From: Algihabitans sp.
GTDB lineage: Bacteria > Pseudomonadota > Alphaproteobacteria > Kiloniellales > DSM-21159
DNA: 24,000 bases
Direction: 5' to 3'
Assembly (NCBI GenBank): GCA_965233705.1
Contig: CBDDTF010000003.1
Span: 1,662,997 to 1,686,996, forward strand
Below, piece after piece: positions 3,224-24,000 of this stretch; position 1 is the stretch's first letter; every line of letters starts with the position of its first letter. The notes beneath the pieces were generated by a model. That model ran no database searches. It was not told the origin of the DNA and saw only the letters and a program-made list of their open reading frames with translations. A program made the position numbers and the translations under genes.

Positions 3224-3735
3224 CAGCTCCTCACGGTAGCCCGGTCGAGGGCTCTGCCGCCCGCCGAATAGGTCTTATCGGAAACCAGATATCCATTGAT
3301 GCCCGGTTCCGGTGCGCCGTTTCGTTGAAGAGGCAAGGTTCGTTTGAAGGCCTCCCGTTCGTCGGAAGTCAGCGCATCCCATGCGGCGCTATAGGTGAGA
3401 TAGCTGTAGAACGAGGCGCCGGAAGTATCGGCATTGGGGGAGACACGGCCGGGATCATCATCATTGGCCGCCATACCCGCCAAATCCTTCGCAGTGTACC
3501 GGACCGTGGGGGCAATCCAGTCGCCATTGCGGCGAAAGCCGTAAGTGACGGTTCCCAGATACCCTGCTTTCAACAGGTCTATGACCTCGGCTTCGTACTC
3601 GGCGATGTCGGCATCGCTCGGTGCGCCATAGAAGCGCTGCATCCGCTTCAGGTCGGCCGCCACCTTCGCCGCCATGTGTCTGGCGTGCGTAACGGTGAAG
3701 GTCGTGGTTTCGGAGATGGTGTAGCTATAGCTCAT
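3220..3735 (-). CDS. cap7: Bacterial HORMA-domain protein (CBASS Cap7), assigned by size and position
   Basis: 171 aa, sandwiched between the CD-NTase and the TRIP13-like ATPase exactly as in type III CBASS. I can read no catalytic motifs. The assignment is contextual, not from a recognised sequence signature. Confidence 0.65.
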   Translation of the reverse strand: MSYSYTISETTTFTVTHARHMAAKVAADLKRMQRFYGAPSDADIAEYEAEVIDLLKAGYLGTVTYGFRRNGDWIAPTVRYTAKDLAGMAANDDDPGRVSPNADTSGASFYSYLTYSAAWDALTSDEREAFKRTLPLQRNGAPEPGINGYLVSDKTYSAGGRALDRATVRSW

Positions 3736-9741: not shown

Positions 9742-10322
9742 CTGGCGGATTTCCCTTCTCCGCAGGCGACAGCGGCGATTACGCCGACCAGTGCCGTCAC
9801 GAGAGCCGACATAGCCGATTGAAGGTGGTGCAGATTGACGTGATACTCGCCGTCAATCGGCCGATCGGTTTTGGCGCCACGATCATAAGTCAGGTTGTAG
9901 CGAAAGGCCGTGGAGTTGGGGTCGATGGCGCCCAGCTCCCTCATTCTGTCGATGATCCAGTCAGGCACGTCTGCGTCGAATTCTGACCTTATGAAGGTTT
10001 GATACTCTTGCGACAAAGCATCGAGATTATGCGTCTTTGCGGCGTCCCGCATAATCGCCTTCAGAAATAACTCGATAGAATGTCGATAGAGATAGAGCAC
10101 AGGGTTTGCGACTTCATAATCCGCCACCTGTTGATGCTTTATGGCCTCGACAAGCGCGCTAGCTGCATTGAAGTATTGTTGGCCAAGGCGCTGAAAGCGC
10201 TGGTTCGCTCCACCACCTACAAGGAAGCCTAATGGCTCGGACCATTCGTCGGGCCGCTCGATTGCTGCCGTTGGGTCCTCAAACAAGGGCCGATGCATCT
10301 GCTCTGCGGTGAAAACACTCAT
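9738..10322 (-). CDS. Hypothetical 194-aa protein with a hydrophobic C-terminal tail, embedded in the type I R-M operon
   Basis: The start is set at ATG 10322 (MSVFTAEQ...), which overlaps the Mrr-like stop (ATGA); its own stop overlaps the hsdR start (ATGA). It has no recognisable catalytic motif. The C-terminus AMSALVTALVGVIAAVACG is a roughly 19-residue hydrophobic stretch. Confidence 0.6.
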   Translation of the reverse strand: MSVFTAEQMHRPLFEDPTAAIERPDEWSEPLGFLVGGGANQRFQRLGQQYFNAASALVEAIKHQQVADYEVANPVLYLYRHSIELFLKAIMRDAAKTHNLDALSQEYQTFIRSEFDADVPDWIIDRMRELGAIDPNSTAFRYNLTYDRGAKTDRPIDGEYHVNLHHLQSAMSALVTALVGVIAAVACGEGKSAR

Positions 10323-11362
10323 GCGTCGCCCCCCGATATCGGCGCCCAAATCTGTTTGAGGGGCAGCTTGGCGCGGGTCTCGTCGGACAGTTCGCCATAG
10401 GCGCGGAACAACGCCTTCAACAGGTCCGGCATCTGCCAGAGGCGCAACTTGAAGAAGTTGTTGTCCAGTTCCTTCTGCGCTGCCGCGTTCACACCGCCGA
10501 TGCTGACCAGAAGACCGGTTCGCGCTTGTGTGTTCGACACCGAACCGATCAGCCGCAGCACAACGTCATGATTGGCCGCCCCATCGCCGGACTTCACCTG
10601 CACGCAGATGCGATCCTCGCCAAGGCCGAGTGTGCCGCCGGCCGCGAGGATGTCCACGCCACCGTCGGCGCCAGGCGGCGATACCTTGGTTGTGTAACCC
10701 TCCACGCGCAGAATTTCGGCCACTAGGTCGGCCAGGGCATGACCGGCGAACTCGGACTTGATCAGCGAAATGATCTGCTGGTTGGCGATATCCTCGATAT
10801 CGGTGGCGTAGTCCTCCGCCTCCACGTCCTCGTCGGGAGCTGGTGCCGATGCCTTGCCCTGCTTGCCGAGAAGGGAGCCGGGGTCACTGCCAGTCTTCAG
10901 GACAGCGCGGACCCGCTCCAGCGCCGAATTGCGCTTGATCTCGCAGATGGTCATGAACGCGCCGAAGGAATGCCGTAGGTCCTGCTTGAAGGCGTCGCGC
11001 GCAACGGACTCTTCCAGCCACTTCACCGCGCGGGAATGGCGATAAGGGTCGTTGGGATCGAAAGCGTATTCCCCCGTTACCTCGCCGATGGCGACGCCGT
11101 TCGTCACCTTCCGCGGCATAACCACAAGGTCGCCGACCTGGATGGTATGGGCAAACTGGTTTAGCTGGGCGGCAAAATTCTTCAGCCGGTTCTGTCCCGC
11201 GTCGGGCATTACCTGTTCAAGATGGACGAGAATGGCGTCTCGGCCCTTGAGCGCGCCCAAGTCGCCAACTTCGAGGAAGCCGGGCAGAAGCCTACCCTGC
11301 TCGATGGCAGCCAGCTCGCGCTCGCCCTGCTTGCCAGCCCGAACAATCCATAAGCGGCTCAT
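10319..11362 (-). CDS. Mrr-family (type IV-like) restriction endonuclease with an uncharacterised N-terminal domain
   Basis: The C-terminal half PPGADGGVDILAAGGTLGLGEDRICVQVKSG matches the Mrr catalytic core (GDGGIDG...VQAKR in E. coli Mrr). The N-terminal ~160 aa (MSRLWIVRAGKQGE...) is not the winged-helix Mrr_N. ATGA overlaps at both ends. Confidence 0.8.
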   Translation of the reverse strand: MSRLWIVRAGKQGERELAAIEQGRLLPGFLEVGDLGALKGRDAILVHLEQVMPDAGQNRLKNFAAQLNQFAHTIQVGDLVVMPRKVTNGVAIGEVTGEYAFDPNDPYRHSRAVKWLEESVARDAFKQDLRHSFGAFMTICEIKRNSALERVRAVLKTGSDPGSLLGKQGKASAPAPDEDVEAEDYATDIEDIANQQIISLIKSEFAGHALADLVAEILRVEGYTTKVSPPGADGGVDILAAGGTLGLGEDRICVQVKSGDGAANHDVVLRLIGSVSNTQARTGLLVSIGGVNAAAQKELDNNFFKLRLWQMPDLLKALFRAYGELSDETRAKLPLKQIWAPISGGDA

Positions 11363-12603
11363 GACGCCATCTCCCGCTGGATGGCGTCCAGTCGCCTGTC
11401 AGGCTCACCCCGCTTGCCCCAGGTAGCGACGTCGATCTGGCCAGTGACGGCAGCGGTGATCAGGGCGGCGCGGAACTCCTGGAGGCGCTCAATTGAGGCG
11501 GCAACCTTGTCGAATACGGGTTCTCTCGCAGCTTGTGCGGCTTGAAATCGCGTTAAAAGATCGAACTGAACCTGCCTATCAGGAACCCAAAGCCGGTAGT
11601 TTCCGAGAGTTTCGCGATTGATCTTGGGCATCGCGACACGCATGGACTCAAGCGTCGCCCAATCGGTGAACTTCCGCGAAAGCAATTGCACTAGCAGGAA
11701 CTCTGGCAAAAGGCGCTTGTCCGGCAGGATGGGGTACATGTCGGCGCTGCACATGCCGGATTGTGGTGCTATGCATGCCTTTGCCAGCGCAGGACGAATC
11801 TTGCTGTAGAGGACCGTGCCGGCGGGGTAGGCGTACTTGCCGCTGATCGCTCCCTGTTCTTCGGCGGTCTCGACCTGCAATAGGCGTCCCGTAGCAGATT
11901 GAATGTGGTTGGGTGCAATCAATGGCTGATTGGTCCAGCGTGGATCGGTGGGATCAACCTGACCCTCCGCGATGCGGCAGACCCACCGGAAGGGGATCAT
12001 CTCCTCGAAGATCATTTCGGCCGGAGTGGTCGCCTCTTCGCGCAGGGCCGCAAGCCCCTCCGCCAGAACCTCCAGCAAACGTTGCTTTTTCTCGATCAGC
12101 CGATCGATGCGGGCGGTCTCGCGGTCGAGGAAATCCGCGATGGCTTTTTGGGTGGGAAGGTCCGGAAGCGGAATTCGCTCTGCGCGTAACCTGTCACGCG
12201 AAAGCTCTATGAAGGTCGTACCTTGGCCGGCAGCCTCTAGCTTTGGCTTAATGGCAGACAAAGCCCAATATGCAAAATCAGAGCGAGCCATTGGCCGAGG
12301 CACCAAACCACGACACCCTTGGTTGAAGCACATGGGCCGTGAAGCAACGGCGATATGACCAATCGGAGCACGGATCGAAAGAATGATGGACCCGGCTGGC
12401 ACCATCTGAGTGCCACAGCTCGAATATCCCTCACGCGTTATACTGCGTTCGCCACAATCTATAGAGCGCGTCTTCAGTTTGCCCAGATCAGCAGGGCCGA
12501 CCCATGGTATGTCTCCGTCCCAGTAGGCCGGTTCGGCGGAAGCAGGGGTTGCCCCGTTCCGAACATCGAAAGCTGCACCGATAGGGACTCCTTGAAAGGT
12601 CAC
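11359..12603 (-). CDS. hsdS: Type I R-M specificity subunit
   Basis: 414 aa with two TRD-like halves separated by the conserved coiled spacer (...QKAIADFLDRETARIDRLIEKKQRLLEVL...). The C-terminal helix is RLQEFRAALITAAVTGQIDV. GTGA overlap with hsdM. Confidence 0.88.
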   Translation of the reverse strand: MTFQGVPIGAAFDVRNGATPASAEPAYWDGDIPWVGPADLGKLKTRSIDCGERSITREGYSSCGTQMVPAGSIILSIRAPIGHIAVASRPMCFNQGCRGLVPRPMARSDFAYWALSAIKPKLEAAGQGTTFIELSRDRLRAERIPLPDLPTQKAIADFLDRETARIDRLIEKKQRLLEVLAEGLAALREEATTPAEMIFEEMIPFRWVCRIAEGQVDPTDPRWTNQPLIAPNHIQSATGRLLQVETAEEQGAISGKYAYPAGTVLYSKIRPALAKACIAPQSGMCSADMYPILPDKRLLPEFLLVQLLSRKFTDWATLESMRVAMPKINRETLGNYRLWVPDRQVQFDLLTRFQAAQAAREPVFDKVAASIERLQEFRAALITAAVTGQIDVATWGKRGEPDRRLDAIQREMAS

Positions 12604-14627
12604 GCCGTCACCTCCTTCAGAAGCCCTGCAATCTCGGCCTCCAGAGCCTTCAGCTCGGCGTCTATCTGCTCCAGCGGGCGCGGCGGGACATAGCGGTAGA
12701 AGTAGCGGTTGAAGTTGATCTCGTAACCGACGCGTCCCACCTCGCCGTCGCGGGCATCGCGGTAGCTCTCGTCCACCCAGGCATCGGGTACGAAGGGTTT
12801 GACCTCGCGCGCAACGTAGTCCCGCCAGTCCTCCTTGAGCGGCACCAGCTCGTGGTCGCGCAGGTCGGTGTCCGGCTCGGGGTTTCCATCCTTGTCGGTG
12901 CAGATGTCGGCCTCTTCGTCTCGCTCCGACAAGGCAGAAAGAATAGCTTTGCGGACAGGCGCCGCAATCTTGAGCCCAGCGCTCTTCAGCGCCTTGGTCA
13001 ACGCCTTGTCGAAGGCGTCACGATTGGTGAACAGCGTGCTCGGCAAGCGAGAGAACAGCCCGTCAAGGATGTCGGCCTGCTCACCGGCGTCGAGCTTGCC
13101 GAACGCCTTCTCCGCCTTCAGGCGCTCGATGCGCTCCGCCGTGGCCTGGAAGTTCAGCCGCAAGGGCCGTTCGACGCGGATTTCCCGATAGCCGAAGTCA
13201 GTGGTGTCGAAGATCTTGGAGAACTCGCCGTACTCACCGTTACCGTTCAACATTTCGGCATAGATGCGGACGATTTCCTTGCGCGCTCCCTCGGGGATTT
13301 CCCGGCGCTTGGAGCCGAGCGACTTGCGCATGGATTTCCAGAACCGCTCGCCGCTGGCGTCAATGAGCTGCACCTTGCCGCGTCGCGCCTTCGGCTTGCG
13401 ATTGGTCAGTAGCCATACATAGGTCTGAATGCCGGTGTTGTAGAACAGGTCGGTGGGCAGGGCGACGATGGCCTCGACGAGGTCCTTCTCCAGCATCCAG
13501 CGGCGAATTTCGCTTTCGCCCGAGCTCGCGCCGCCGGTGAACAGCGGCGAGCCGTTCATGACGATGCCGATGCGCGAACCGGTTTCGTCGTCGCGCATCT
13601 TGGCGATCATATGCTGGAGGAACAGCAACTGCCCGTCGGAAATCCGCGGCAAGCCGGCGCCGAAGCGACCGTCGAAGCCCAGCGTCTCGGCCTCTTCCTT
13701 GATCGGGTCCTGGTACTTCTTCCAATCAACGCCATAGGGCGGATTGGAGAGCATGTAGTGGAAGGATTTGCCCTTGTGGGCGTCGTTCGTCAGCGTGTTG
13801 CCGAAGGCGATTTGCTCGGGGTCGTGGCCGGTGACGAGCATGTCGGATTTGCAGATGCCGAAGGACTCCCCGTTCAGCTCCTGCCCGAACAGCTCGACGC
13901 GGATGGAGGGGTTGAAGTCCTTCAGCGCTTCCTCGGTCAGCGCCAGCATGCCGCCGGTGCCGCAGGCCGGGTCATACACCTGGCGGATGATACCCTTGCC
14001 GGTCAGCTTGGTGTCGTCGTTGGCGATCAGCAGTTCGACGATGAGGCGGATGACCTCGCGCGGGGTGAAATGCTCACCGGCCGTCTCGTTGGAGATTTCC
14101 GAGAACCGGCGGATCAGGTCCTCGAACAGATAGCCCATCTCGATGTTGCTCACCCGGTCAGGGTGCAGGTCGATCTGGGTGAAGCGGTCGAACACCTGCC
14201 AGAGGATGCCGCCTTCGTTCAGGCGCTTGAGCTGGTCGGTGAACAGGAATTTGTCGAGAAAGATATCGCGGACGTTGCCGGAAAACTTGGTGATGTAGTC
14301 GATCAGGTTGGCATGGAGCTGGCCGGGGTCCTGCGCCTTCAGGCTTTTGAAGGTGAAGGCGCTGAGGTTGTAGACCTTGATGTTGCTGCCGGCCGCGCCG
14401 AACAGAATCATGTCGCGGGTTTCGTCGTCAACGCCGTCCGGCAGGCCCTTGGCGGCGTCGAGCACGTCCGCCTTCGATGCCTCAAGGATGCAATCGAGGC
14501 GTCGGAGCACGATGAAGGGAAGGATGACCTTGCCATATTCGGATTGCTTGAAGTCGCCGCGCAGGATTTCCGCGATCGACCAGACGAAGCCTCCGAGGCT
14601 TTGAACCTTGGCGTTTGCCCCTGACAC
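12600..14627 (-). CDS. hsdM: Type I R-M N6-adenine DNA methyltransferase subunit
   Basis: NPPYG motif IV (MLSNPPYGVDW), SAM motif I (VYDPACGTGGML) and an HsdM_N-like LRGDFKQSEYGKVILPFIVLRRLD. The start is set at GTG 14627 (SD GGAGGGG upstream), not at the 777-aa ORF start, which would run through the upstream HTH gene. Confidence 0.9.
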   Translation of the reverse strand: MSGANAKVQSLGGFVWSIAEILRGDFKQSEYGKVILPFIVLRRLDCILEASKADVLDAAKGLPDGVDDETRDMILFGAAGSNIKVYNLSAFTFKSLKAQDPGQLHANLIDYITKFSGNVRDIFLDKFLFTDQLKRLNEGGILWQVFDRFTQIDLHPDRVSNIEMGYLFEDLIRRFSEISNETAGEHFTPREVIRLIVELLIANDDTKLTGKGIIRQVYDPACGTGGMLALTEEALKDFNPSIRVELFGQELNGESFGICKSDMLVTGHDPEQIAFGNTLTNDAHKGKSFHYMLSNPPYGVDWKKYQDPIKEEAETLGFDGRFGAGLPRISDGQLLFLQHMIAKMRDDETGSRIGIVMNGSPLFTGGASSGESEIRRWMLEKDLVEAIVALPTDLFYNTGIQTYVWLLTNRKPKARRGKVQLIDASGERFWKSMRKSLGSKRREIPEGARKEIVRIYAEMLNGNGEYGEFSKIFDTTDFGYREIRVERPLRLNFQATAERIERLKAEKAFGKLDAGEQADILDGLFSRLPSTLFTNRDAFDKALTKALKSAGLKIAAPVRKAILSALSERDEEADICTDKDGNPEPDTDLRDHELVPLKEDWRDYVAREVKPFVPDAWVDESYRDARDGEVGRVGYEINFNRYFYRYVPPRPLEQIDAELKALEAEIAGLLKEVTA

Positions 14628-14821
14628 TATTCCCCTCCCCGTTTCTTCGCTTCCGCCGACTGCTGCTCGATCCACTTGTCGATCTCGCCGCGCCGGAACC
14701 GCCAGGCCCCGCCGACCTTGAAGCCGGGAATCTTTCGCTCGGCCGCGAGGCGATAAGCCGTCTTCTCGGTGAGCTTGAGATATCCAGCCACCTCCCGGAT
14801 CGTCATGATGTCGGTGTCCAT
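14627..14821 (-). CDS. Small excisionase-family HTH protein translationally coupled to hsdM
   Basis: MDTDIMTIREVAGYLKLTEKTAYRLAAERKIPGFKVGGAWRFRRGEIDKWI is the HTH_17 pattern. Its TAG stop shares one nucleotide with the hsdM GTG start (TAGTG). Confidence 0.7.
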   Translation of the reverse strand: MDTDIMTIREVAGYLKLTEKTAYRLAAERKIPGFKVGGAWRFRRGEIDKWIEQQSAEAKKRGGE

Positions 14822-14904
14822 ACGGCTCCCCGCCGGAACATCCAGCCCGTATTGAGAAAATACGGGAAGAAATGGGAAATGCCAAGCGGAAGACCGCCAT
14901 GGTC

Positions 14905-15477
14905 CTATTCCGCTTGCCCGCCCCGTCGTGCACACGGAAGGTGGCGGTACAGCGTTGAAACCGACACGCCTACGCGCTGAGCAACCTCAGCGACAGTGAT
15001 CTCTGGATTGCGGAGAAGCTGTCGAGCGTCGCGAATACCCTCCTTCGACAATCCAGGCGGCCGGCCGCCCTTGCGGCCTCGGGCGCGAGCGGCTTCAAGC
15101 CCGGCCGTTGTCCTTTCGCGGATCATGGCGCGCTCGAACTCCGCCAGGGCGCTGAAAACATGGAACACGAGCATGCCGCCGGCGGTCTTCGTGTCGATCA
15201 TCTCGGTCAGAGAGCGGAAGCCCATGCCCTTCGACTGGAGAAGCTGCACCGTGTCGATGAGCTGGCGCATCGACCGGGCCAGGCGGTCGAGTTTCCAGAC
15301 GACAAGCGCGTCGCCAGGTCGCATGTAGTCCAGCGCCTTGAGAAGCTCAGGCCGGTCACGCTGCGCACCGGAAGCAGTCTCGGTGAAGATGCGTTCACAT
15401 CCGGCCGCCTCAAGGGCGTCGGTTTGAAGCGTCAGATTTTGTTCGGCTGTCGAAACTCGGGCGTAACCAATATTCAC
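14905..15477 (-). CDS. Serine recombinase (resolvase/invertase family)
   Basis: (V)NIGYARVSTAEQNLTLQTDAL carries the catalytic Ser motif, followed by VVWKLDRLARS and a C-terminal HTH (ITVAEVAQRVGVSVSTLYRHL). The start is set at GTG 15477. The longer 218-aa ORF would read through the luxI-operon terminator hairpin. Confidence 0.88.
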   Translation of the reverse strand: MNIGYARVSTAEQNLTLQTDALEAAGCERIFTETASGAQRDRPELLKALDYMRPGDALVVWKLDRLARSMRQLIDTVQLLQSKGMGFRSLTEMIDTKTAGGMLVFHVFSALAEFERAMIRERTTAGLEAARARGRKGGRPPGLSKEGIRDARQLLRNPEITVAEVAQRVGVSVSTLYRHLPCARRGGQAE

Positions 15478-15545
15478 TCTCTCGAAAATCCATAAATTTA
15501 ACACGGACAGTGTATCAGATTTCGACGCACAGTTTTGAGAAATAC

Positions 15546-15574
15546 AGAAGGGCGGAAACACGTTCCGCCCTTCT
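15546..15574 (-). terminator. Rho-independent terminator of the luxI-orf61 transcript
   Basis: AGAAGGGCGGAA-cgtgt-TTCCGCCCTTCT is a perfect 12-bp stem, followed on the minus strand by GTATTTCT. It lies 16 nt after the orf61 stop. Confidence 0.8.
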
Positions 15575-15590: not shown

Positions 15591-15776
15591 TCAGTATCGG
15601 TCGTTTTTGCGAGGTGGTTTCACCGCATCCAATGCCGCCGCCGTCTCATCAAAACCGGCACGCCGTGCTTCATCCGCGAGATAGCGGATGCACCACGCAA
15701 GCCTGTCGGCTTCGGTGCGGGAAGGTTGCTCGCTGCCATACGGCGCAGACGCGGGCCATTCGGTATCGTGCATCAT
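15591..15776 (-). CDS. Hypothetical 61-aa protein translationally coupled to the AHL synthase
   Basis: ATGA overlap with the luxI-family stop, GC-rich third codon positions, and a terminator directly downstream. No recognisable domain. Confidence 0.5.
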   Translation of the reverse strand: MMHDTEWPASAPYGSEQPSRTEADRLAWCIRYLADEARRAGFDETAAALDAVKPPRKNDRY

Positions 15777-16450
15777 GCCGCAACCCTTTCCGTGCGAAGC
15801 TCATCAAGGTTGGCGATGACGGAACCCGTTGCGCCGGCGCGAGCGCGGACACGCGCGAGGTAGGCAGGCGATACCTCCAGCCACTCGGCCGCCGCCGTGT
15901 CGGTGCCGGTCTCCATCGTTCCGCCCAAGCGGACGGGGTTCCATCCGGCTCGGCGCATGATCGGCTCCATGCGGATGTCCGACACGGACACATAGGCACG
16001 CAAGCCAGCGTACTGGCCGAACTCCAACATGCCGGCCATGAGGATGGCCGCGATGTTGCCCGGAGCCGTGGTTTGGTCGGCACAGAAGCGGGTGCTCTCC
16101 CAGATGTCATGCGTGCGCGGCATGTCGGCGTCTACCAGCTCGGGGAATACGTCGGCCAGGAGATACGGGCCTGTCGTCGGCAAGAGCCGGGTGCAGGCGT
16201 TCACGCGGCCGTCCGGCGCGTAGTGAACCAGATAGTGCGCCTCGGGCAGGTCGAACTGGTCGAGCTCCAGCCCGTTGACGACGGTGACATCCCAGCCAAG
16301 CCGCTCCCTGAAGACACTCCGGCGGAGCTGGTGCATGGACGCGAGCGCATCCCAATGCAGGTGCGCGTTCTCTTTCGATATGATGTGAAGCAATGGCTTC
16401 CCTCCCAATTTGTTTGGGAGCATTGAGCCAGAGAACGAAGCGCCTGCCAT
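15773..16450 (-). CDS. LuxI-family acyl-homoserine-lactone synthase
   Basis: MHQLRRSVFRERLGWDV...ELDQFD...RLLPTTGPYLLADVFPEL...IWESTRFC is the canonical autoinducer-synthase block. The start is uncertain: ATG 16450 has GGAGG 8 nt upstream, ATG 16423 fits family length better, and the ORF track starts at GTG 16465. Confidence 0.9.
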   Translation of the reverse strand: MAGASFSGSMLPNKLGGKPLLHIISKENAHLHWDALASMHQLRRSVFRERLGWDVTVVNGLELDQFDLPEAHYLVHYAPDGRVNACTRLLPTTGPYLLADVFPELVDADMPRTHDIWESTRFCADQTTAPGNIAAILMAGMLEFGQYAGLRAYVSVSDIRMEPIMRRAGWNPVRLGGTMETGTDTAAAEWLEVSPAYLARVRARAGATGSVIANLDELRTERVAA

Positions 16451-16467
16451 CCTGTCAACCTCCACAG
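16451..16467 (-). promoter_or_regulatory. lux-box-like palindrome CTGTGGAGGTTGACAGG (copy 1)
   Basis: CTG-N10-CAG architecture, with an exact 17-mer copy at 18288-18304. It lies immediately upstream of, and overlaps the SD of, the luxI-family gene. Confidence 0.45.
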
Positions 16468-16489: not shown

Positions 16490-17248
16490 TCAGGGCGCGA
16501 TGATGCCTTCCATGATCGCCTTCATCACGGCGTGATAGACGTTCGCCACGCCCATCTTGGAGCGGACGTTCGCCAAGTGAAAATAGACCGTGCGCTCGGA
16601 TATCCCGAGTATCTGAGCGGTCTGCCAGGCCGATTTCCCGGCGGCGGTCCAGAGCAGGCACTCGCGCTCGCGCGGCGTCAGGCTGACGGTGGTGCGCCCC
16701 ATGCGGCCAAGCGCGAGCAACTCGCGAGCGTGATTGTGGAAGGCGAGCGACAACAGGTGCACGTCCTGCCCCACCGTGGACATGAGCCGGTCGAGCCCCT
16801 CGGCGCCATGATCGGAAACCATGGACGCCATCGCGAGCGCGCCGCGCGCGCCGTGGATCGGGATACCGACGCCCTCACCAACTCCGAACTCGGCCGCCTC
16901 CGCGAAAAGGCGTCGTTGTTCCGGTGAGGGATCGATGCCGAAGGACATCTCGCTCCATGTGAAAGGGGCCACCTGGCTCGGTCCTTTCAGGATGACCGGA
17001 TCGACGCGATGATAGTCGTTGTCGATGTAGTGGTTGTACCAGGCATCGGAGAAAGTGGTGAGGATGAGCGGCTTCTCGTCCGGCAGCGCATCGGCGTGGA
17101 TGACCTGATAGGCCCACTCTCGAAAGCCGAGATCCCAGAGCGCTTTCGAGAACGCAGCTTCGAGCGACGCCACGTCTTCAACGTGGCGTATCTGGTCAAG
17201 GAAAGCGATGACAGTCGGCCGGATGCGTGACCCCTCCTCGCATGGCAT
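16490..17248 (-). CDS. LuxR-family AHL-responsive transcriptional regulator
   Basis: It has an N-terminal autoinducer-binding-like domain (WAYQVIH...DPV...W...) and a C-terminal LuxR HTH: LTPRERECLLWTAAGKSAWQTAQILGISERTVYFHLANVRSKMGV. Confidence 0.88.
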   Translation of the reverse strand: MPCEEGSRIRPTVIAFLDQIRHVEDVASLEAAFSKALWDLGFREWAYQVIHADALPDEKPLILTTFSDAWYNHYIDNDYHRVDPVILKGPSQVAPFTWSEMSFGIDPSPEQRRLFAEAAEFGVGEGVGIPIHGARGALAMASMVSDHGAEGLDRLMSTVGQDVHLLSLAFHNHARELLALGRMGRTTVSLTPRERECLLWTAAGKSAWQTAQILGISERTVYFHLANVRSKMGVANVYHAVMKAIMEGIIAP

Positions 17249-17276
17249 TTGCAGAATACTTATGGGTAGCGCCGAA

Positions 17277-17296
17277 AATTCGTGAAATGACGAATT
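17277..17296. promoter_or_regulatory. Inverted repeat AATTCGT-gaaatg-ACGAATT in the luxR/parA divergent region
   Basis: Perfect 7-bp arms with a 6-nt spacer. Confidence 0.4.
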
Positions 17297-17309
17297 GTGT
17301 ATGTCATCA

Positions 17310-17335
17310 TTTATCGAAATCGTCCTTTCGATAAA
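17310..17335. promoter_or_regulatory. Inverted repeat TTTATCGAAA-tcgtcc-TTTCGATAAA just upstream of parA
   Basis: Perfect 10-bp arms with a 6-nt spacer, 23 nt upstream of the parA ATG. Candidate partition-operon operator or centromere-like site. Confidence 0.45.
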
Positions 17336-17358
17336 AACAACAACAAGAAAGATCGGAC

Positions 17359-18012
17359 ATGACTCTTTTCATTGGAACCATTTCTCAGAAAGGTGGCGTC
17401 GGCAAAAGCACGCTGGCCCGCCTCATCGCGCGTGAATATGCGCTTGCCGGCTGGAACGTGAAGATCGCGGACCTCGATATCCAGCAGGGCACCAGCTTCA
17501 ATTGGCAGGCGCGTCGTCTTCAGCGCAGCGTCGAGCCGGTGGTCGCGGTCGAACGCTTCGGCACGGTCGGCCAGGCCGTGAAGGCGGCGGCCGGCTACGA
17601 TCTTATGATCCTCGATGGCCCACCGCACGCGACGATGGGCACGCTCCAGATTGCCGAAGCCAGCACGCTTGTCGTGCTGCCGAGCGGTCTCGCGCTCGAT
17701 GACCTGGAGCCGACCGTCCTGCTCGCGCATGAACTGATCAGAAAGGGCGTCCCCGCCGACAGGATCGCCATCGCCTTCTGCCGCGTCGGCGATAGCGAGG
17801 GCGAGCTTGCCGAGGCCAGCGCCTATGTGCACCAGGCTGGATACCGGCACCTGACAAATGTGCTGCCGGAGAAAACGGCCTTCCGCCGCGCCAGCGACGA
17901 CGGCCGCGCGCCGACCGAAACGCGCTTCCCATCTCTGAACGAACGGGCGGAAGCCATAGCGCAAGAGATTGCCGATCTGGTTCAGGACCGCAGTAACAAG
18001 GAGGCCGCATAA
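17359..18012 (+). CDS. parA: ParA-family partition ATPase (small, type Ib-like)
   Basis: Deviant Walker A ISQKGGVGKSTLA and Walker A' MILDGPP. 217 aa. Confidence 0.88.
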   Translation: MTLFIGTISQKGGVGKSTLARLIAREYALAGWNVKIADLDIQQGTSFNWQARRLQRSVEPVVAVERFGTVGQAVKAAAGYDLMILDGPPHATMGTLQIAEASTLVVLPSGLALDDLEPTVLLAHELIRKGVPADRIAIAFCRVGDSEGELAEASAYVHQAGYRHLTNVLPEKTAFRRASDDGRAPTETRFPSLNERAEAIAQEIADLVQDRSNKEAA

Positions 18013-18013
18013 G

Positions 18014-18241
18014 ATGACTAAGATCATGCCTCCCCACCGAACCGGCAAAGGGCTTCCGCCCGCACCGGCACAGGTCGTCCATAACCTCGACCGCGCCGAG
18101 GCCGGCACATTGAAGCCGCTCAATTTCAAGGTCAGCCCCGAGTTTCACCGCGAGTTCAAAGCCTACGCGGCCGTTCACGGCGTCTCGATGCTGGACATAT
18201 TGAAAGAGGGGTTCGCGCTCGTGAAACAGCGGCGCGGATAA
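18014..18241 (+). CDS. Small ribbon-helix-helix ParG-like partner of ParA
   Basis: The start is set at ATG 18014, 1 nt after the parA stop. The C-terminal LNFKVSPEFHREFKAYAAVHGVSMLDILKEGF is a typical RHH (beta strand plus two helices) with a disordered basic N-terminal tail. Confidence 0.65.
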   Translation: MTKIMPPHRTGKGLPPAPAQVVHNLDRAEAGTLKPLNFKVSPEFHREFKAYAAVHGVSMLDILKEGFALVKQRRG

Positions 18242-18287
18242 AGAAATAACGAAATCGCTATATAGGTATTTATTTCACAAAAACAAG

Positions 18288-18304
18288 CTGTGGAGGTTGA
18301 CAGG
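18288..18304 (+). promoter_or_regulatory. lux-box-like palindrome CTGTGGAGGTTGACAGG (copy 2)
   Basis: Exact 17-mer copy of 16451-16467, in the AT-rich intergenic region about 210 nt upstream of traG. Confidence 0.45.
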
Positions 18305-18363
18305 TTACGCTGTGAATACTCCATACCAATAACATTATCAGGAAGGCGTTGCCGACCCCTCAT

Positions 18364-18389
18364 TTGGCAAAGTCGTCAATAGGGAATGC
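18364..18389 (+). repeat. Direct repeat unit 1: TTGGCAAAGT-N7-AGGGAATGC
   Basis: It shares both 10-mer and 9-mer blocks with 18483-18510. Confidence 0.5.
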
Positions 18390-18482
18390 GACGAACGGGA
18401 TCGGCAACACTTCCATTATTGTCTCATTCGAAACGAATTACCACACGTCAGCCAATGTAATTTTCCGCCGCCCCATAAACCC

Positions 18483-18510
18483 TTGGCAAAGTTAACTACC
18501 AAGGGAATGC
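18483..18510 (+). repeat. Direct repeat unit 2: TTGGCAAAGT-N9-AGGGAATGC, abutting the traG start
   Basis: The same two blocks as 18364-18389. The second block supplies the traG SD region. Confidence 0.5.
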
Positions 18511-18513
18511 ACC

Positions 18514-20109
18514 ATGGGGCATCTACGTCTTCTGTGGCGCCTCGTCAGGCTTGTCCTCGTCGAGCTGCCTATCTGCCTGCTTATCGCAGCGCTCATCTGG
18601 TCCATCATCGACAATCTCACTTATGGCACTGATCGGCTGCTCGTCCTCGGCACGGCCGGGGTGGTGGCCTTCGCGGCGATCCTCTTCTTCGCCAGCCGCC
18701 TCTTCCGCCGACCGAGCGATGCGCACGGCACGGCCGCCTTTGCGACGCCGGCCGACATCGGCCGCGCTGGCCTGCGGTCACGCGGCGTCATCCTCGGCAA
18801 GAAGGGCGGACGTTTCGTCCGCTTCGACCGGCCGGGCCACCTGCTCACCTTCGCGCCAACCCGCTCGGGCAAAGGCGTCGGTGTCGTCATCCCCAACCTG
18901 CTCGACCATCCGGGCTCGGTGGTGGTGACGGACATCAAGGGCGAGAACTACCGCATCACAGCGCGGCACCGCGGCACGCTTGGGCCGGTGCATGCGTTCG
19001 CGCCTTTCGATCCGGACATCGAAAGCGCCTGCTACAACCCGGTCGAGTTCATCCGTACTGGCACCGTCAACGATGTGGACGATGCGCGGCTGATTGCAGA
19101 AATGATCGTGGCTCCCGATGGTCACGAGCCGAACCACTGGGAGCGCGAGGCACGGGTGCTTGTCACCGGGCTGCTGCTCCATATCGCCCATGACCTGCCG
19201 CCCGGCCGCCGGAACCTGCGCGAGCTTCGAGTTCTGCTGATGCGCTCGCGCGAAGGCTTCGACGGCGTGCTCGCCGGCATGGCCGATGCCAAACACCCCA
19301 TCGTGCAGCGTATCGCACAAGGGTTCTCGCAGAAGGAGGACAAGGAGCGCTCGGCCGTCATATCGACGGCGCAGACGCGGACGGAGGTGTTCGACAGCCC
19401 GCAGCTCGGGGCGATCACCAGCCGCTCCACCTTCCGGCTGGAAGACCTGAAGAACGGCGTCATGTCGGTCTTCCTGATCATCCCGCCCGAGTACGTCTCC
19501 GTCTACCAGCCCTTCCTGCGTCTGATGGTCGGTCTCACCACGGCCGCGATGACGCGGAACAAGCGGATACCCCGGCATCCGGTGCTGTTCCTGCTCGATG
19601 AGCTGCCCGCCCTCGGGCCGATGCGGCCGATCGAGGACGGCATCGGCTACCTGGCCGGATACGGAGCGCACCTGTGGCTGTTCGTCCAAGACCTCGACCA
19701 GCTCCAGAAGACCTATCGGAAGTGGCGCTCGATGATCGCCAACTGCGCGGTGCGGCAAGCCTTCAACGTCCAGGACGATGAGACGGCGCTGTTGCTCTCG
19801 CTGATGCTCGGCCAACGCACCGTGAAGGTCTCCAGCGGCGGCAAGAGCGGGCGTTTCCCGTTCCTGGGGTTGGCGTCCAACTACAGCGAGCACCACAGCG
19901 AGATTGGACGGCCACTGCTGGCGCCGTCCGAAATCATGCTGCTGCCGGAGAGCTGCCAGCTCCTGTTCGTGCAGGGCTGCCGCCCGATCCTGGCGCAGAA
20001 GCTCCGCTACTTCGAGGAGCGGGCATTCAAGGGGCGCTGGACGCCCTGGCGGATGGAAGCGGCGGAGGACGACCCCGGTGCGCTCATATCCGCCGACATG
20101 ATGAAATAA
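18514..20109 (+). CDS. traG: Type IV secretion coupling protein (TraG/VirD4 family)
   Basis: Two N-terminal TM helices, Walker A APTRSGKGVGVVIPN and Walker B VLFLLDELPALG, plus the typical GAHLWLFVQDLDQL block. Confidence 0.9.
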   Translation: MGHLRLLWRLVRLVLVELPICLLIAALIWSIIDNLTYGTDRLLVLGTAGVVAFAAILFFASRLFRRPSDAHGTAAFATPADIGRAGLRSRGVILGKKGGRFVRFDRPGHLLTFAPTRSGKGVGVVIPNLLDHPGSVVVTDIKGENYRITARHRGTLGPVHAFAPFDPDIESACYNPVEFIRTGTVNDVDDARLIAEMIVAPDGHEPNHWEREARVLVTGLLLHIAHDLPPGRRNLRELRVLLMRSREGFDGVLAGMADAKHPIVQRIAQGFSQKEDKERSAVISTAQTRTEVFDSPQLGAITSRSTFRLEDLKNGVMSVFLIIPPEYVSVYQPFLRLMVGLTTAAMTRNKRIPRHPVLFLLDELPALGPMRPIEDGIGYLAGYGAHLWLFVQDLDQLQKTYRKWRSMIANCAVRQAFNVQDDETALLLSLMLGQRTVKVSSGGKSGRFPFLGLASNYSEHHSEIGRPLLAPSEIMLLPESCQLLFVQGCRPILAQKLRYFEERAFKGRWTPWRMEAAEDDPGALISADMMK

Positions 20110-20124
20110 CGAAAGGATGAAAGG

Positions 20125-20484
20125 ATGAAATCGTTTAATCACGATATCGGCGCGACTGCCTTCTTCGGACTGCTCGTTGCCACGGTCTTGGCCGTCCCGC
20201 TCGCTGCGTTCCTGCATCGCGACGCGCACGGGAGCCCGATGGAGCTGCCCCGCTGCGACGAAGCGCGCTCTTTGGATCAGGTTCGCGCCGCTCTCGAAGG
20301 GCAAAACGGCAGCGTCGTTCTCGGCCTCTACAACGCCATCGAACACAGCGACGGCAGAAACACCGACATCAGGCGCTGTACCGCGATAGCGGTCACGGCC
20401 GAACGCGAGACCGTCATCGGGTTTTCAGTCGGCTGGGACGACCGTCGGAACGGCCTGCCGTTCTGGACGGGGGACGGACTGTGA
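20125..20484 (+). CDS. Hypothetical small membrane-anchored or secreted protein
   Basis: 119 aa with an N-terminal hydrophobic segment ATAFFGLLVATVLAVPLAAFL and two Cys residues. It starts 16 nt after traG. No recognisable domain. Confidence 0.45.
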   Translation: MKSFNHDIGATAFFGLLVATVLAVPLAAFLHRDAHGSPMELPRCDEARSLDQVRAALEGQNGSVVLGLYNAIEHSDGRNTDIRRCTAIAVTAERETVIGFSVGWDDRRNGLPFWTGDGL

Positions 20485-20530
20485 ATCTCAATAGGAGCCT
20501 GCTTCGTAGACAGGCTCAGCAGACCGCCAT

Positions 20531-21766
20531 TTATATGAGGTGCGCAAGGATGTTTTGTGGGTTCCGGCAGGCAGCTAGTAAACCATTATACCAGACTGCC
20601 AGTGGATACTGCGGATCATTCGATACCTCCAGCTCATTGGCCGCCTTCAGATCGCTGACAAGAGCCGGAGCGACATGACCCTTCCCGCTCATGCGACTCG
20701 CATCCCCAGGCAGAGTCTTGAACAGTTGGTATGTCCAGTTGTCACTTCTGAAGGGTAACGGGTCTTGATCATCATTCGCCCAATCGATCACGACAGTCGG
20801 ACGGTGTCTGTTTCGGATTTCGGAGAACAGGGCATTAAGGTGCAAGTCGCCGAAGCCATAGCCCAGGAACAATAAACAATCGGCTTCATGCACAAGACGG
20901 TTGACCTGGGCAAAGTAGGTTCGGAATGGCTGCCTCAGAATTTGCTGTGTCTTGCCGTAGCCCGCGACGAAGGGTGACATCGAGTAGGTCGTCCCCTCCA
21001 CCGAGTCTTGGCTGTTTCGACCGGAGGCATGCACTTCATGTCCCTTAGAAGGAGTGACAGCCCATTTGATGCCGTGCATATCGTGGGCAACGCCTGTCAT
21101 AGCAAAATGGACAGAGCCGTGCAGATGATAGATGAAACCCCAGTTCCTACGATCAAGAACTGACAACGGGTCGAACTCTCCCGTAGCGGCATCAAAGCCG
21201 GTATGTAGTCCCGGACATGCCTGCGTGAACACGTTGTCGTAGTTCAGTGTAATAATACCAATATCGAACCGCTCTTTCAGGGCATCCAGAAATGCCTTCA
21301 ACTCCGCAATCTCATTTTGCTTCGTTCTGCTGACTTGTTCGCAGGCATCGATAAAGTGATCGACCAAGGCGTCCATTAAGCTGGCCGTCAAGGTTCGGAG
21401 CACACCGCCGTCTACGGGCTTTTGCGTTCGGCCAAACTCCAAAACATCGGGAAGGACGTTGGGCGCCAGAAGTGCGTTGGAGCCATGGAGCGAATAGGGA
21501 TCGGACAGATAGGGGACTAGGAGATTGAGCTGATACAGCACCTCTTCAAAGTTCACCCACGCACGCAGAGCCGGCTTGGGTGCCTTGGCATAATAGCCTT
21601 GGATCGCATCTCGACAGTATCGGTATAGATTGGTCGTCGGGTCGGAAGCTAGCGGGTGTAGTCGGCCTGCGCACTGATCAAGAAGCGCATCAACACCGGA
21701 AACCGATGGCAGGTCAAAGTCGATGGACGCGCCAGCCCCAACGGTGATCAAAAGCTTCTTTCTCAT
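20531..21766 (-). CDS. Standalone SIR2-family (SIR2_2-like) protein, predicted NAD+-consuming defence effector
   Basis: LLITVGAGASIDFDLPS (GAGxS NAD-binding loop), IITLNYDNVF (catalytic Asn block), IYHLHGSV (catalytic His block) and LLFLGYGFGDLHL (end of SIR2_2 fold). Strong SD GGGGGGAGATAAT-ATG. GC is visibly lower than in flanking genes. Confidence 0.8.
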   Translation of the reverse strand: MRKKLLITVGAGASIDFDLPSVSGVDALLDQCAGRLHPLASDPTTNLYRYCRDAIQGYYAKAPKPALRAWVNFEEVLYQLNLLVPYLSDPYSLHGSNALLAPNVLPDVLEFGRTQKPVDGGVLRTLTASLMDALVDHFIDACEQVSRTKQNEIAELKAFLDALKERFDIGIITLNYDNVFTQACPGLHTGFDAATGEFDPLSVLDRRNWGFIYHLHGSVHFAMTGVAHDMHGIKWAVTPSKGHEVHASGRNSQDSVEGTTYSMSPFVAGYGKTQQILRQPFRTYFAQVNRLVHEADCLLFLGYGFGDLHLNALFSEIRNRHRPTVVIDWANDDQDPLPFRSDNWTYQLFKTLPGDASRMSGKGHVAPALVSDLKAANELEVSNDPQYPLAVWYNGLLAACRNPQNILAHLI

Positions 21767-21847
21767 ATTATCTCCCCCCAGCGCACAAGCCCAATCCGAG
21801 ATGCGACGATGAGCTTGTTAGATTTACATCGTTCAAGGTAGCAACCA

Positions 21848-23545
21848 TCACTTATCGAACAAACTCAGGTCGAGCCCAAACGCCCGGCCCCGTTCGCGTT
21901 TGCGCTCCCGCTCAAGGCGCCGCTCCTTGGCCAGACGCCACGCGCGATGGAGCTGCTCGCGCCGCTCGTCCGACAGTCGGCTGCGCTCGATGGCCTTCTC
22001 GGTCACACGGGACAGTGCCCGCGCTCGCGCCTTGATCTTCTCCAGCATGGTCTCGCGGAGAGCCTGCGGGCTGCCTGCGATCTGCTGTAACATCTCGAAG
22101 TCGCGGATGGCCTGCTTCACCCGCCGCCGCGCCTGCTCGATTTCCGAACGAGTATGCTCCAGCCGGTTCCTGGCGTCCCGCCACCGGCGGCGGCGCTCGA
22201 TGATGTAGCGATAGTAGCGCCTGGCCTCCTTCCGGTCGGCCGTCCGCGTGTCGCCCAGCCGCATGCCGCGCACCGCCCCCAGGATGAAGGGGTCCTTTTC
22301 GATCATGCGTTCGGCGTCGCGGATGCCGAACTTCTCCTCCAGGTCATCCCAGACCGCGCGGGCCTTGACGGCGTCCCGGTAGACCTTGCCCAGAATGTCG
22401 TCGAGGCTGCGGTCACGCTTCTGAAGCCATGCCTCGTCTCGGGGCACCTGCTTCTCGGCGAAGGATTGCTGACGCTCGGCGTAACGCACCTTGCCGGCGG
22501 CCGACCGGTAGGACGCCTCGATCTGGCTCCAGTAGCGGAAGTCCATGTCGGCCGCATCGAACCGCTGCACGGCCACCTCGGCCGGGTCGCGGTCGGGCTC
22601 CTCGGCGAACATACCCTCGACGGTGCGCCGCTCGGGCGGGGCCATGTCCGACGTGTCGGGGGTCGGCTCCTCCTTGCCCTGCTCCCGCTGCGCCACGCGC
22701 GCGGCCTGCCGCGTCATGTGGTCGTCAAAGCTCTGCGCGAAGCGTTCCTCCAGGGCATGGAAGCGCACACCCTTGCCCATATCGGAGAGCTTGGCGAAGC
22801 GCTCCCCGTCGGTGAGGATCAGACCCTGCCCCTTGCGTTCCAGGGTGACGCCCTTTTCGGCAAGCCGCTGGGCCAGGTCATCCCAATCTCGGGCGCGGAT
22901 GAAGTCGTCCTTCAGGCGGCGGCGCAGGTCGGCAACATCGTCCTTGGCGAAGGGGATCTGGGCCTCGCGTTGCTCCCGCCGCGCCTGCCAGTATTCGGCG
23001 TCGGAGACGGTGGGGCCGAAGTCCTCCACCACGTCCCGGCCGAGCTGGCGCTCGTACTCGCGGTTGCGCAGGATGTTGAGGCCGTGCTCCTGCGCCAGTT
23101 CCTGCACGATGCCGGTCAGCCGCCGCCCGTCCTGATGCCGGTCATAGGCAACGTGCTTCTCGGGATGCACCCGGTTCACCAGAAAATGCAGGTGGGGGTG
23201 GTCGGTGTCGCGGTGGCTGTAGACCAGGAGCTGATGCTCCGTCAGGCCCATCCGCTCGATGACCTGTTGCGCGACCTTCCTCTTCACCTCCGGCGTCACC
23301 TTCCCCGCCGCCGCGTCCTTCGGGTCGAAGGTGATCATGAAGTGATAGGCCGGCTGCTTGCAGCGCACCGACTTGGCGGCCGTCGCGTCCATGACGGCCG
23401 CCGCCGCACGCGGGTCGTCGGTCAAAAGATTGCGGGTTTCGACGAACTCCACCCGGTCAGGGGAGAGCCCCTTGATCTGGCCGGCGAGATAGAGTGCCGA
23501 GCCCCGGAAGCTCTCCGGCTGACGGGCGGGCACCTTAAAGCGCAT
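21848..23545 (-). CDS. Relaxase / mobilization nuclease (MobA/VirD2-type, Pfam Relaxase-like)
   Basis: It has an N-terminal relaxase core with the histidine triad HRDTDHPHLHFLVNRV. Candidate catalytic Tyr residues lie in the N-terminal region (ALYLAGQ and PAYHFMITF); I cannot assign which. The C-terminal half is long, charged and coiled. An 11-nt overlap with mobC has GGAGGGGAG as SD. Confidence 0.88.
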   Translation of the reverse strand: MRFKVPARQPESFRGSALYLAGQIKGLSPDRVEFVETRNLLTDDPRAAAAVMDATAAKSVRCKQPAYHFMITFDPKDAAAGKVTPEVKRKVAQQVIERMGLTEHQLLVYSHRDTDHPHLHFLVNRVHPEKHVAYDRHQDGRRLTGIVQELAQEHGLNILRNREYERQLGRDVVEDFGPTVSDAEYWQARREQREAQIPFAKDDVADLRRRLKDDFIRARDWDDLAQRLAEKGVTLERKGQGLILTDGERFAKLSDMGKGVRFHALEERFAQSFDDHMTRQAARVAQREQGKEEPTPDTSDMAPPERRTVEGMFAEEPDRDPAEVAVQRFDAADMDFRYWSQIEASYRSAAGKVRYAERQQSFAEKQVPRDEAWLQKRDRSLDDILGKVYRDAVKARAVWDDLEEKFGIRDAERMIEKDPFILGAVRGMRLGDTRTADRKEARRYYRYIIERRRRWRDARNRLEHTRSEIEQARRRVKQAIRDFEMLQQIAGSPQALRETMLEKIKARARALSRVTEKAIERSRLSDERREQLHRAWRLAKERRLERERKRERGRAFGLDLSLFDK

Positions 23546-24000
23546 CGCTCCCCTCCGGGCCGTCGGGCTCCCGTCTCTTCGGTCCCTTGGCGACCGCCTT
23601 GTGGATCGGGGCCAGCACGTCCTTCAGGATCGTGAGCGCCTCGTCGCGCTCCGCGTCGTCGATGTCCTTCCCGGAGTTGGCGCGGCGGGCGAGGCTGTTG
23701 ATCAGGTGGCCAATGCCGTTGACGGCCTCGACGTGGTGCATGAGGACGGGCGCCAGGTCGGCGCGGTCGGTCAGGCGCTCGATCATCTCTTTGCCAACAT
23801 AGAGCACCCACGGGCGGTAGGTCTCATCCCCGGTGGCGGCTTCGAGCTGGGCCAAGTTGTTGGCGATCCGCCCCAGCTCATAGAACACGTCCTCGATGGC
23901 CTTCGCCTTCGCCGGCTTGGCTCTGGGCTTCCGGCCCATCGCTGTCTCGCGGACATAGTCGGCGAAGGTGACGCCGGCCTCGACGGCACGCTGCTGGATG
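23535..24000 (-). CDS. mobC: MobC-family relaxosome accessory protein (5' end outside window)
   Basis: The frame stays open to the window edge (...IQQRAVEAGVTFADYVRETAMGRKP...), so Met 23939 is internal. LGRIANNLAQL and GIGHLINSLARRAN resemble the MobC (G)xNLNQxAR repeats. Confidence 0.75.
   Translation of the reverse strand, partial: IQQRAVEAGVTFADYVRETAMGRKPRAKPAKAKAIEDVFYELGRIANNLAQLEAATGDETYRPWVLYVGKEMIERLTDRADLAPVLMHHVEAVNGIGHLINSLARRANSGKDIDDAERDEALTILKDVLAPIHKAVAKGPKRREPDGPEGSDAL

Follow-up and report, generated by a model that had tools for sequence, protein, structure and literature searches.

To our knowledge, every bacterial SIR2 enzyme so far characterised as a NADase, that is, as a consumer of nicotinamide adenine dinucleotide (NAD+), is either controlled by a partner (the HerA ATPase, the signals made by ThsB, or a prokaryotic Argonaute, pAgo) or carries a large fused sensor, as DSR and Avs5 do. 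Here we describe a gene with neither arrangement. It lies at positions 20531..21766, on the reverse strand, of a 24,000-nucleotide stretch of Algihabitans sp. DNA (assembly GCA_965233705.1, contig CBDDTF010000003.1, positions 1,662,997 to 1,686,996), which we call the window. Its open reading frame (ORF), Pfam matches, AlphaFold2 model and Foldseek comparisons identify the product as a predicted NAD+-consuming enzyme of 411 residues, belonging to the SIR2_2 ('sirim') family. Our preferred reading, to which we give a probability of roughly 0.55, is that this is an autonomous NADase defence gene of the immune branch of SIR2 proteins (SIR2_2/'sirim'), carried as single-gene cargo in a hotspot of a conjugative element.

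The reading frame opens with ATG, and its position, its length and the integrity of three hallmark motifs, GAGAS, LNYDN and HLHGS, are as the original prediction, made from the letters of the window, had described them. Residues 171-323 match Pfam SIR2_2 (PF13289; E=6e-13, with 49.5 bits where the cut-off is 24.5), and this is the only Pfam match in the protein. Conservation was judged from an alignment of 22 family members that are 44-82% identical. GAGAS, the glycine-rich NAD-binding loop (residues 10-14; 21725..21739, reverse strand, as are all segments of the gene given here), is invariant among them. LNYDN (residues 174-178; 21233..21247) overlaps an invariant run from T173 to D177, aligns with TNYD of PsSIR2 (8w9l) and contains the predicted catalytic pair, N175 and D177; HLHGS (residues 214-218; 21113..21127) aligns with LHGS of the same protein, includes the predicted catalytic histidine, H216, and is invariant at H214, H216, G217 and S218. 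Two further blocks, AGYGK (268-272) and GYGFxD (302-307), are likewise invariant, as are R340, D342, W344, E380, W392, Y393 and G395 towards the C-terminus. The SIR2_2 or 'sirim' branch lacks a zinc module and consists mainly of NADases (bioRxiv 10.1101/2024.09.18.613514; PMC12700824).

The best match among known systems, by sequence profile and by fold, is provided by the SIR2 subunits of SIR2-HerA, also named Nezha or Gao_Her_SIR (8uae, 8sub, 8wld and 8w9l, the last being PsSIR2). A profile search of the PDB retrieved 8w9l at E=4e-10, with the NYD and HGS blocks and also a later block of the GYxxxD type in register, and Foldseek recovered these subunits at E values of about 1e-10 to 1e-7 with template modelling (TM) scores of only 0.5-0.6 and an identity of about 15%. 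They share with the window protein a length of about 380-415 residues and the lack of a zinc module. However, a HerA ATPase gene is adjacent in those systems and is found neither in the window nor at the homologous loci, and the NCBIfam SIR2_antiphage equivalog for the SIR2-HerA protein (NF042942) scores the window protein at 14.5 bits against a cut-off of 500. More broadly, the protein resembles the sirim class in exceeding the PF13289 cut-off, in having no zinc module and in occupying neighbourhoods rich in defence genes and mobile elements, but its clade falls in no named system and has no fused or neighbouring sensor.

Two other immune systems invite comparison. ThsA of Thoeris, about 400-480 residues long, likewise has a SIR2_2 catalytic domain, and its NADase is controlled by ligand binding and oligomerisation. 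ThsA exists as SIR2-SLOG or SIR2-Macro fusions, whereas Pfam and Foldseek find neither a SLOG nor a Macro domain in the window protein; nor is there a counterpart of the TIR protein ThsB, since the island consists of one gene and no TIR occurs among the 25 families listed in our census of neighbours. ThsA chains were not among the PDB profile matches at E<=1. DSR1 and DSR2 offer the likeness of a single-gene SIR2 NADase defence that unites sensor and effector in one polypeptide; they differ in being about 1,000 residues long or more, with large C-terminal sensor domains, where the window protein has 411 residues and an appendage of ~85. DSR chains are missing both from the eight PDB profile matches at E<=1 and from the first 50 Foldseek matches.

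The remaining comparisons are more distant. Short pAgo systems of the SIR2-APAZ type (SPARSA) differ in that the window protein has no APAZ domain and no pAgo neighbour, and the Aga_SIR2 models of PADLOC match its SIR2 core only (E about 1e-10). KomC of Kongming, a protein of about 264 residues that acts with KomA and KomB, was matched by the PDB profile at E=0.025 over 28 residues only, and neither KomA nor KomB is present; an E. coli SIR2 protein was a marginal match in the same search. The 'SirAAB' classes of acetic acid bacteria are different proteins, of about 351 and 1,179 residues. In its compactness, its essentially single domain and its lack of a zinc module, the window protein is reminiscent of vertebrate FAM118A/B, SIR2_2 proteins that form filaments, depend on self-assembly for activity and turn over NAD only modestly (PMC12700824). 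These are eukaryotic, belong to a different clade and are not among the top structural matches, but they set a precedent for such a protein being regulated with no extra sensor domain. Finally, compact defence genes of integrons and other mobile-element hotspots resemble our case in that the family includes a one-gene cassette in Vibrio and the junction occupied by the window copy is a fixed site that receives various cargoes; the integron-defence literature that we surveyed, which did not extend to the V. parahaemolyticus integron study of Getz et al. 2025, mentions no SIR2 cassette.

The structure of the locus shows the gene to be an insertion. It sits between two convergent parts of a conjugative backbone, which Pfam annotates as the original prediction had done: on one side, a type IV coupling protein (T4CP) of the TraG/VirD4 family (18514..20109, forward strand; T4SS-DNA_transf, E=2e-85), followed by an ORF of 119 residues, orf119 (20125..20484, forward strand), that closes the T4CP operon and converges on the SIR2 gene; on the other, a MobA/VirD2-type relaxase gene (21848..23545, reverse strand; Relaxase, E=4e-31), upstream of the SIR2 gene and co-directional with it, and then a NikA/MobC-like gene (23535..23939, reverse strand) known from annotation of the window ORFs. 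A metagenome scan with the relaxase found eleven loci with related elements. In the closest of these (L071), where the relaxase is 95% and the T4CP 97% identical, blastn aligns 16643-20481 and 21848-24000 of the window and nothing between, so that homology breaks exactly at the stop codons of orf119 and the relaxase gene; the variable segment is therefore 20482..21847. Its 1,366 bp hold the SIR2 gene alone, with 81 nt upstream and 49 nt downstream, as the description of a single-gene island required. In three other relatives (L073, L074 and L079), whose relaxases are 68% identical to that of the window, the site is empty, with only 2 nt between the convergent stops of the relaxase and the orf119 homologue.

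Elsewhere the same junction is filled by other genes: a PRiA4_ORF3 gene with a MazEF pair (L071 7699-9105), HipA with a helix-turn-helix (HTH) gene and an integrase fragment (L075 7654-11200), or a 1,010-residue SMC/AAA_21 ATPase (L077 860-3913). From these filled, empty and alternatively filled sites it follows that the SIR2 gene is acquired cargo, as had been supposed from its composition, that orf119 belongs to the backbone, and that accessory modules of toxin or defence type have landed repeatedly at the junction of the relaxase and T4CP operons. Homologues of orf119 follow the T4CP gene in L071, L073, L074 and L079 whether cargo is present or absent. We considered orf119 as a partner of the SIR2 gene and rejected it, since it is a member of the T4CP operon that relatives retain with an empty site or with other cargo; it has no Pfam match and no plasmid match.

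The base composition of the gene is consistent with this history. The SIR2 gene has a GC content of 53.5% (59.7% at third codon positions, GC3), against 67.6% (GC3 87.8%) for the relaxase gene and 65.5% (GC3 85.3%) for the T4CP gene, and it is the lowest-GC 1.2-kb stretch of the window. The dip that was first noticed is thus real, but its size had been overstated: 60-nt lines range from 43 to 63% GC in the SIR2 gene and from 60 to 78% in the relaxase gene, and the comparison of whole genes is one of 53.5% with flanks of 66-68%. The gene also has the start signal claimed for it, a strong Shine-Dalgarno sequence, GGGGGGAGA (21771..21779, reverse strand), read directly from the sequence and ending 5 nt before the ATG. 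A consensus scan of the intergenic parts around the gene found no promoter and no terminator, and a search of Rfam over 20000-22200 gave no match. Between the convergent genes there is a hairpin, GAGCCTG-N9-CAGGCTC, which we examined as a possible terminator and discarded, its stability being no greater than that of shuffled sequence (z=-1.6).

Four homologues begin differently. A leader of ~45 nt precedes the SIR2 start in L001 (7955-8003), L003 (1134-1182), L056 (7955-8003) and L059 (7994-8042), the last in a different genomic context. In L001, L003 and L056 it contains an upstream ORF of 11 codons (MKACLVPTRFP-like) whose stop codon shares the sequence ATGA with the SIR2 start, and the SIR2 ATG is not preceded by a Shine-Dalgarno sequence; this arrangement, read from sequence, suggests translational coupling or low-level expression of SIR2. 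The upstream ORF of L059 is shorter (MKVYLVPV) and ends before the SIR2 start. In the window copy the leader is absent and the strong Shine-Dalgarno sequence stands in its place.

The family lacks any conserved neighbour. We gathered ~70 loci, 53 fetched and a further seventeen obtained through exact-protein look-ups, and searched around them in several ways. The only neighbour clusters to emerge from all-against-all blastp of flanking ORFs from 54 loci came from four near-identical Methylobacterium loci. A search of 25 loci with a relaxed threshold (E<=1e-3) found only DUF932 and RadC to be shared, and these are the backbone of one integrative and conjugative element (ICE) lineage, represented by L001, L002, L003 and L056. 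In a census by PADLOC and Pfam, which covered 142 neighbour proteins of 15 close loci, no family was represented by more than three proteins, and phmmer at E<=1 on the immediate neighbours of 21 loci again returned only ICE backbone genes in common. HerA is absent from the window and from the neighbourhoods of the homologues examined. We also rejected HerA or another partner in more distant members, where the co-directional neighbours (a DEAD helicase, DUF4396, RhuM-Fic, HsdR or unassigned genes) share no family. The homologues thus carry no conserved partner across these loci, and the description of the gene as self-contained is borne out.

Two copies illustrate this autonomy particularly well. 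In V. parahaemolyticus a pair of attC-like repeats, spaced 1,420 bp from each other, encloses the SIR2 gene and no other, and the array to which this cassette belongs consists of small cassettes running in one direction. The copy of Methylobacterium adhaesivum (L086 8001-9236) is a lone insertion of 47% GC among housekeeping genes of 69% GC, including those for an ABC transporter, YajC and SecDF, with no mobile-element genes within 8 kb. Together with the window island, the Vibrio cassette and the Methylobacterium insertion argue that the gene works alone.

The family is widespread and uniform in its architecture. A large protein database contains 312 homologues (best E=1e-228), 44-82% identical over their full length and nearly all of 406-446 residues, from hosts that include Burkholderia, Rhodoferax, Chromobacterium, Vreelandella, Ectothiorhodospira, Dyella, Methylobacterium, Pseudomonas, Janthinobacterium, Vibrio parahaemolyticus and Pectobacterium. 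An exhaustive profile search over 1.84 billion cluster representatives, clustered at 50% identity, retrieved 884 clusters at E<=1e-10, of which 228 reached E<=1e-30. Among the best 150 of the 228, all are of 478 residues or fewer and the full-length ones match the profile from end to end, so that the ~410-residue architecture is fixed and free of fusions. Close DNA relatives of the gene were not found among plasmids, and tblastn of plasmids otherwise returned only SIR2-like genes at 26% identity that sit in other operons. An unannotated fragment on plasmid pRK1-2 of Cupriavidus basilensis (L082 6001-6381) is 50% identical to residues 272-410 only and is, from its sequence, probably a decayed copy.

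Many of these copies keep company with defence genes. Hachiman adjoins the SIR2 gene in two ICE-like loci; the Chromobacterium copy lies beside a retron-Ec48-like gene, NERD and an ORC/CDC6-like gene; and in a Burkholderia ICE the gene is found inside the F-type tra region, next to a restriction-modification (RM) system of MmeI type. A Janthinobacterium island combines it with Pycsar, UDG and ZorA (of Zorya). Type I RM systems accompany two copies, one following HsdR-YgjP and the other ahead of RhuM-Fic and HsdR, and the closest homologue, at 82% identity, comes after SLATT and GTP-cyclohydrolase-like genes. GajA (of Gabija), Cas1/Cas2, AriA and an ABC-3C domain occur among the other neighbours, and the window itself holds an operon resembling a type III cyclic-oligonucleotide-based antiphage signalling system (CBASS) and a type I RM locus. 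Antiphage systems have been found to be enriched 12-fold around genes of the sirim clade (Bonhomme et al., bioRxiv 10.1101/2024.09.18.613514). The support for the proposed defence role of the gene is this association with defence genes and mobile elements.

In the mechanism that we consider most likely under our preferred reading, the SIR2 protein would be kept inactive in the uninfected cell. Phage infection, or the entry of another invading element, would cause a conformational or oligomeric change, the activated N175/D177/H216 site would hydrolyse NAD+, and the depletion of NAD+ would stop the infected cell, constituting abortive infection. The task of sensing would fall to this one 411-residue chain, and control would probably be exerted through self-assembly or conformational gating, by analogy with ThsA, DSR2, Avs5, SIR2-HerA and FAM118B. 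The AlphaFold2 model, built from the family alignment, is confident (predicted local distance difference test, pLDDT, 89.9; predicted TM score 0.90). There are three candidates for the sensing role: a helical insert (residues 77-166), a loop (353-378) and a C-terminal α/β unit. The first interrupts the Rossmann core at about residues 73-166; we place it between the Rossmann halves at about 77-166 (21269..21538), with DSSP helices at 73-87, 120-148 and 150-164. It is the most variable segment of the family, with the highest column entropy (1.74-1.85), and the loop 353-378 is also among the most variable.

The C-terminal unit had been the original candidate for a sensor. In the model VVIDW (residues 325-329) is the last Rossmann strand and the remaining ~85 residues form a compact α/β unit, which we delimit as a family-specific subdomain at residues 329-411 (20534..20782) on the strength of its invariant residues and of its folding alone: segment 319-411, modelled by itself as 93 residues, adopts the same secondary structure at pLDDT 94. 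The suggestion that it acts as the sensor gains no support, for the unit is about as conserved as the catalytic core, and Foldseek of this region found no significant structural match in the PDB (best E=0.53), so that we set aside its identity with a known sensor fold. To judge from sequence variability, the helical insert is at least as good a sensor candidate, and it is a candidate recognition or gating surface.

Several observations weigh against the gene being an autonomous defence NADase. The protein has no recognisable sensor domain, and its C-terminal unit has no significant PDB match. We found no literature report of a stand-alone bacterial SIR2 defence gene of ~410 residues, the generic SIR2 models of PADLOC match it weakly (53 bits at best), and its NF042942 score, given above, is far below the cut-off of that antiphage equivalog. 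The association with defence genes is an observed co-occurrence, without comparison to a background rate, and several copies lie among ordinary genes on the chromosomes of Pectobacterium, Ectothiorhodospira and Methylobacterium. Lastly, the relaxase gene of the window is co-directional with the SIR2 gene, which begins only 81 nt downstream of it, and this gap contains no σ70-like promoter match. Read-through transcription from the relaxase gene is therefore possible, and SIR2 expression may be tied to the transfer operon.

This last observation leads to the strongest rival explanation, that the gene serves the mobile element in another way: by competition with or exclusion of plasmids and ICEs, by stabilisation, or by anti-defence, consuming NAD+ or NAD-derived immune signals, perhaps when expressed with the relaxase operon during transfer. 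The gene is co-directional with nikA as well as with the relaxase gene, four close homologues lie between DUF932 and RadC in ICE accessory regions, another is found among F-type tra genes, and the same hotspot in relatives holds the addiction modules MazEF and HipAB. However, the family also occurs off conjugative elements, in the Vibrio integron cassette and on the three chromosomes just mentioned, and as a single gene without an antitoxin this is not a classical addiction module. In RP4 and R64 the genes downstream of the relaxase enter the recipient last, and, if the analogy holds, such late entry would not fit the anti-defence role expected of leading-region genes. Nor is there a viral counterpart: no homologue was found in 50,697 phage records, and the viral structure library BFVD yielded generic sirtuins only. 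We regard service to the element as unlikely overall, and retain it as an alternative because of the 81-nt position without a promoter match and the copies in ICE accessory regions.

We consider it improbable that the protein is instead a regulatory or metabolic enzyme, be it a protein deacylase, an ADP-ribosyltransferase or a modest NAD processor like FAM118A/B. Such a role has its precedents, in that the catalytic N/D/H set is common to all chemistries of the SIR2 superfamily, SirTM sirtuins ADP-ribosylate proteins and FAM118B processes NAD only modestly (PMC12700824); moreover, some copies sit among housekeeping genes. Canonical deacylases, however, need a zinc-binding module (PMC12700824), and the window protein has no zinc-ribbon, its 6 cysteines being scattered with no CxxC pairs and no Cys4. 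It does not match the canonical sirtuin family (Pfam SIR2, PF02146), and CobB and the SIRT proteins fit its fold at TM 0.3-0.5 only, so that the check for a grouping with housekeeping sirtuins revealed none. A distribution that is patchy and driven by horizontal transfer, a GC content well below that of the flanks in many hosts, and cargo positions in mobile elements also speak against a metabolic role.

That the gene is left over from a two-gene system of the SIR2-HerA kind, non-functional or decaying after the loss of its partner, is very unlikely, even though its closest solved relatives are SIR2 subunits that need HerA, and rhizobial plasmids carry remote SIR2-like genes, 26% identical and of comparable size, within multi-gene operons. 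Neither HerA nor any other shared family adjoins the ~70 loci, full length is kept across the 228 clusters with catalytic and C-terminal residues invariant, neither the window insert nor the Vibrio cassette is large enough for a second gene, and identity to HerA-type SIR2 is just 15%. The remote genes, of about 398 residues, are carried by rhizobial and Afipia conjugative plasmids (L083 3080-8709 and L084 2553-7188); one of the two operons comprises a nucleotidyltransferase, a hypothetical gene, HNH, SIR2 and a ComF-like gene, the other an ATP-binding protein, an S8 peptidase and a SIR2-like gene, and they may be other uncharacterised SIR2 systems with partners. A spurious or inactive ORF, for which only the atypical composition would speak, is hardly credible: homologues number 312, with E values down to 1e-228, the fold is confident, the active-site motifs are invariant and the Shine-Dalgarno sequence is strong.

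Elsewhere the window carries other defence and transfer genes. The type III CBASS-like operon, on the reverse strand, comprises a SMODS cyclase (3744-4709), bacHORMA_1 (3220-3735), a Trip13-like AAA protein (2282-3223) and a DUF6602 protein that is its probable effector (1560-2285). Divergent from it is a gene for a 412-residue protein with HTH_3 and Peptidase_M78 domains (4890-6128), which resembles a fused regulator of the CapH/CapP type. The type I RM locus (6745-14933) consists of HsdR (6745-9741), HsdS (11359-12603) and HsdM (12600-14933), all on the reverse strand, and embeds between HsdR and HsdS an unassigned ORF of 203 residues (9738-10349) and a Mrr_cat/NA-iREase1 protein (10319-11362). 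A tyrosine integrase lies near the window start (161-1147) and a serine resolvase beside the RM locus (14905-15561); there are no tRNA genes within the window.

An autoinducer synthase gene of LuxI type (about 15773-16465) and the gene of a LuxR regulator (16490-17248), both on the reverse strand, stand next to ParA (17359-18012) and the T4CP operon, which suggests, by analogy with Ti and rhizobial plasmids, that transfer is under quorum-sensing control. Past the window end, on the same contig (L054 1-7700) and upstream of nikA, there are genes for a pentapeptide-repeat protein, DUF736 and a 613-residue ParB_N protein, all typical of the genes with which conjugative elements establish themselves. 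A region of reduced GC content with inverted repeats, at about L054 7290-7460, may hold the origin of transfer, and the search for such an origin upstream of nikA there found only unremarkable inverted repeats. The element itself could be either an ICE or a segment of a megaplasmid.

Since NAD+ depletion by SIR2 proteins is already well known, the advance offered by an autonomous defence NADase of this kind would be incremental rather than conceptual. We tentatively advance a wider proposal, that the ~410-residue family could be the smallest self-sufficient SIR2 immune module, combining sensor, switch and NADase with no partner. Recognition of the trigger, or self-assembly, would then depend on a C-terminal α/β unit not described before and on the variable helical insert, and the module would spread as a one-gene cassette by way of integrons, ICE hotspots and lone insertions. 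If this is true, a widespread, partner-free protein of ~410 residues would show how small a system can couple the sensing of infection to NAD+ depletion, and would be an easy system for structural work and for the discovery of triggers. It would also illustrate the exchange of single-gene defences by conjugative elements and integrons at fixed hotspots, for which the empty sites, filled sites and alternative cargoes at the relaxase/T4CP junction are a ready natural experiment.

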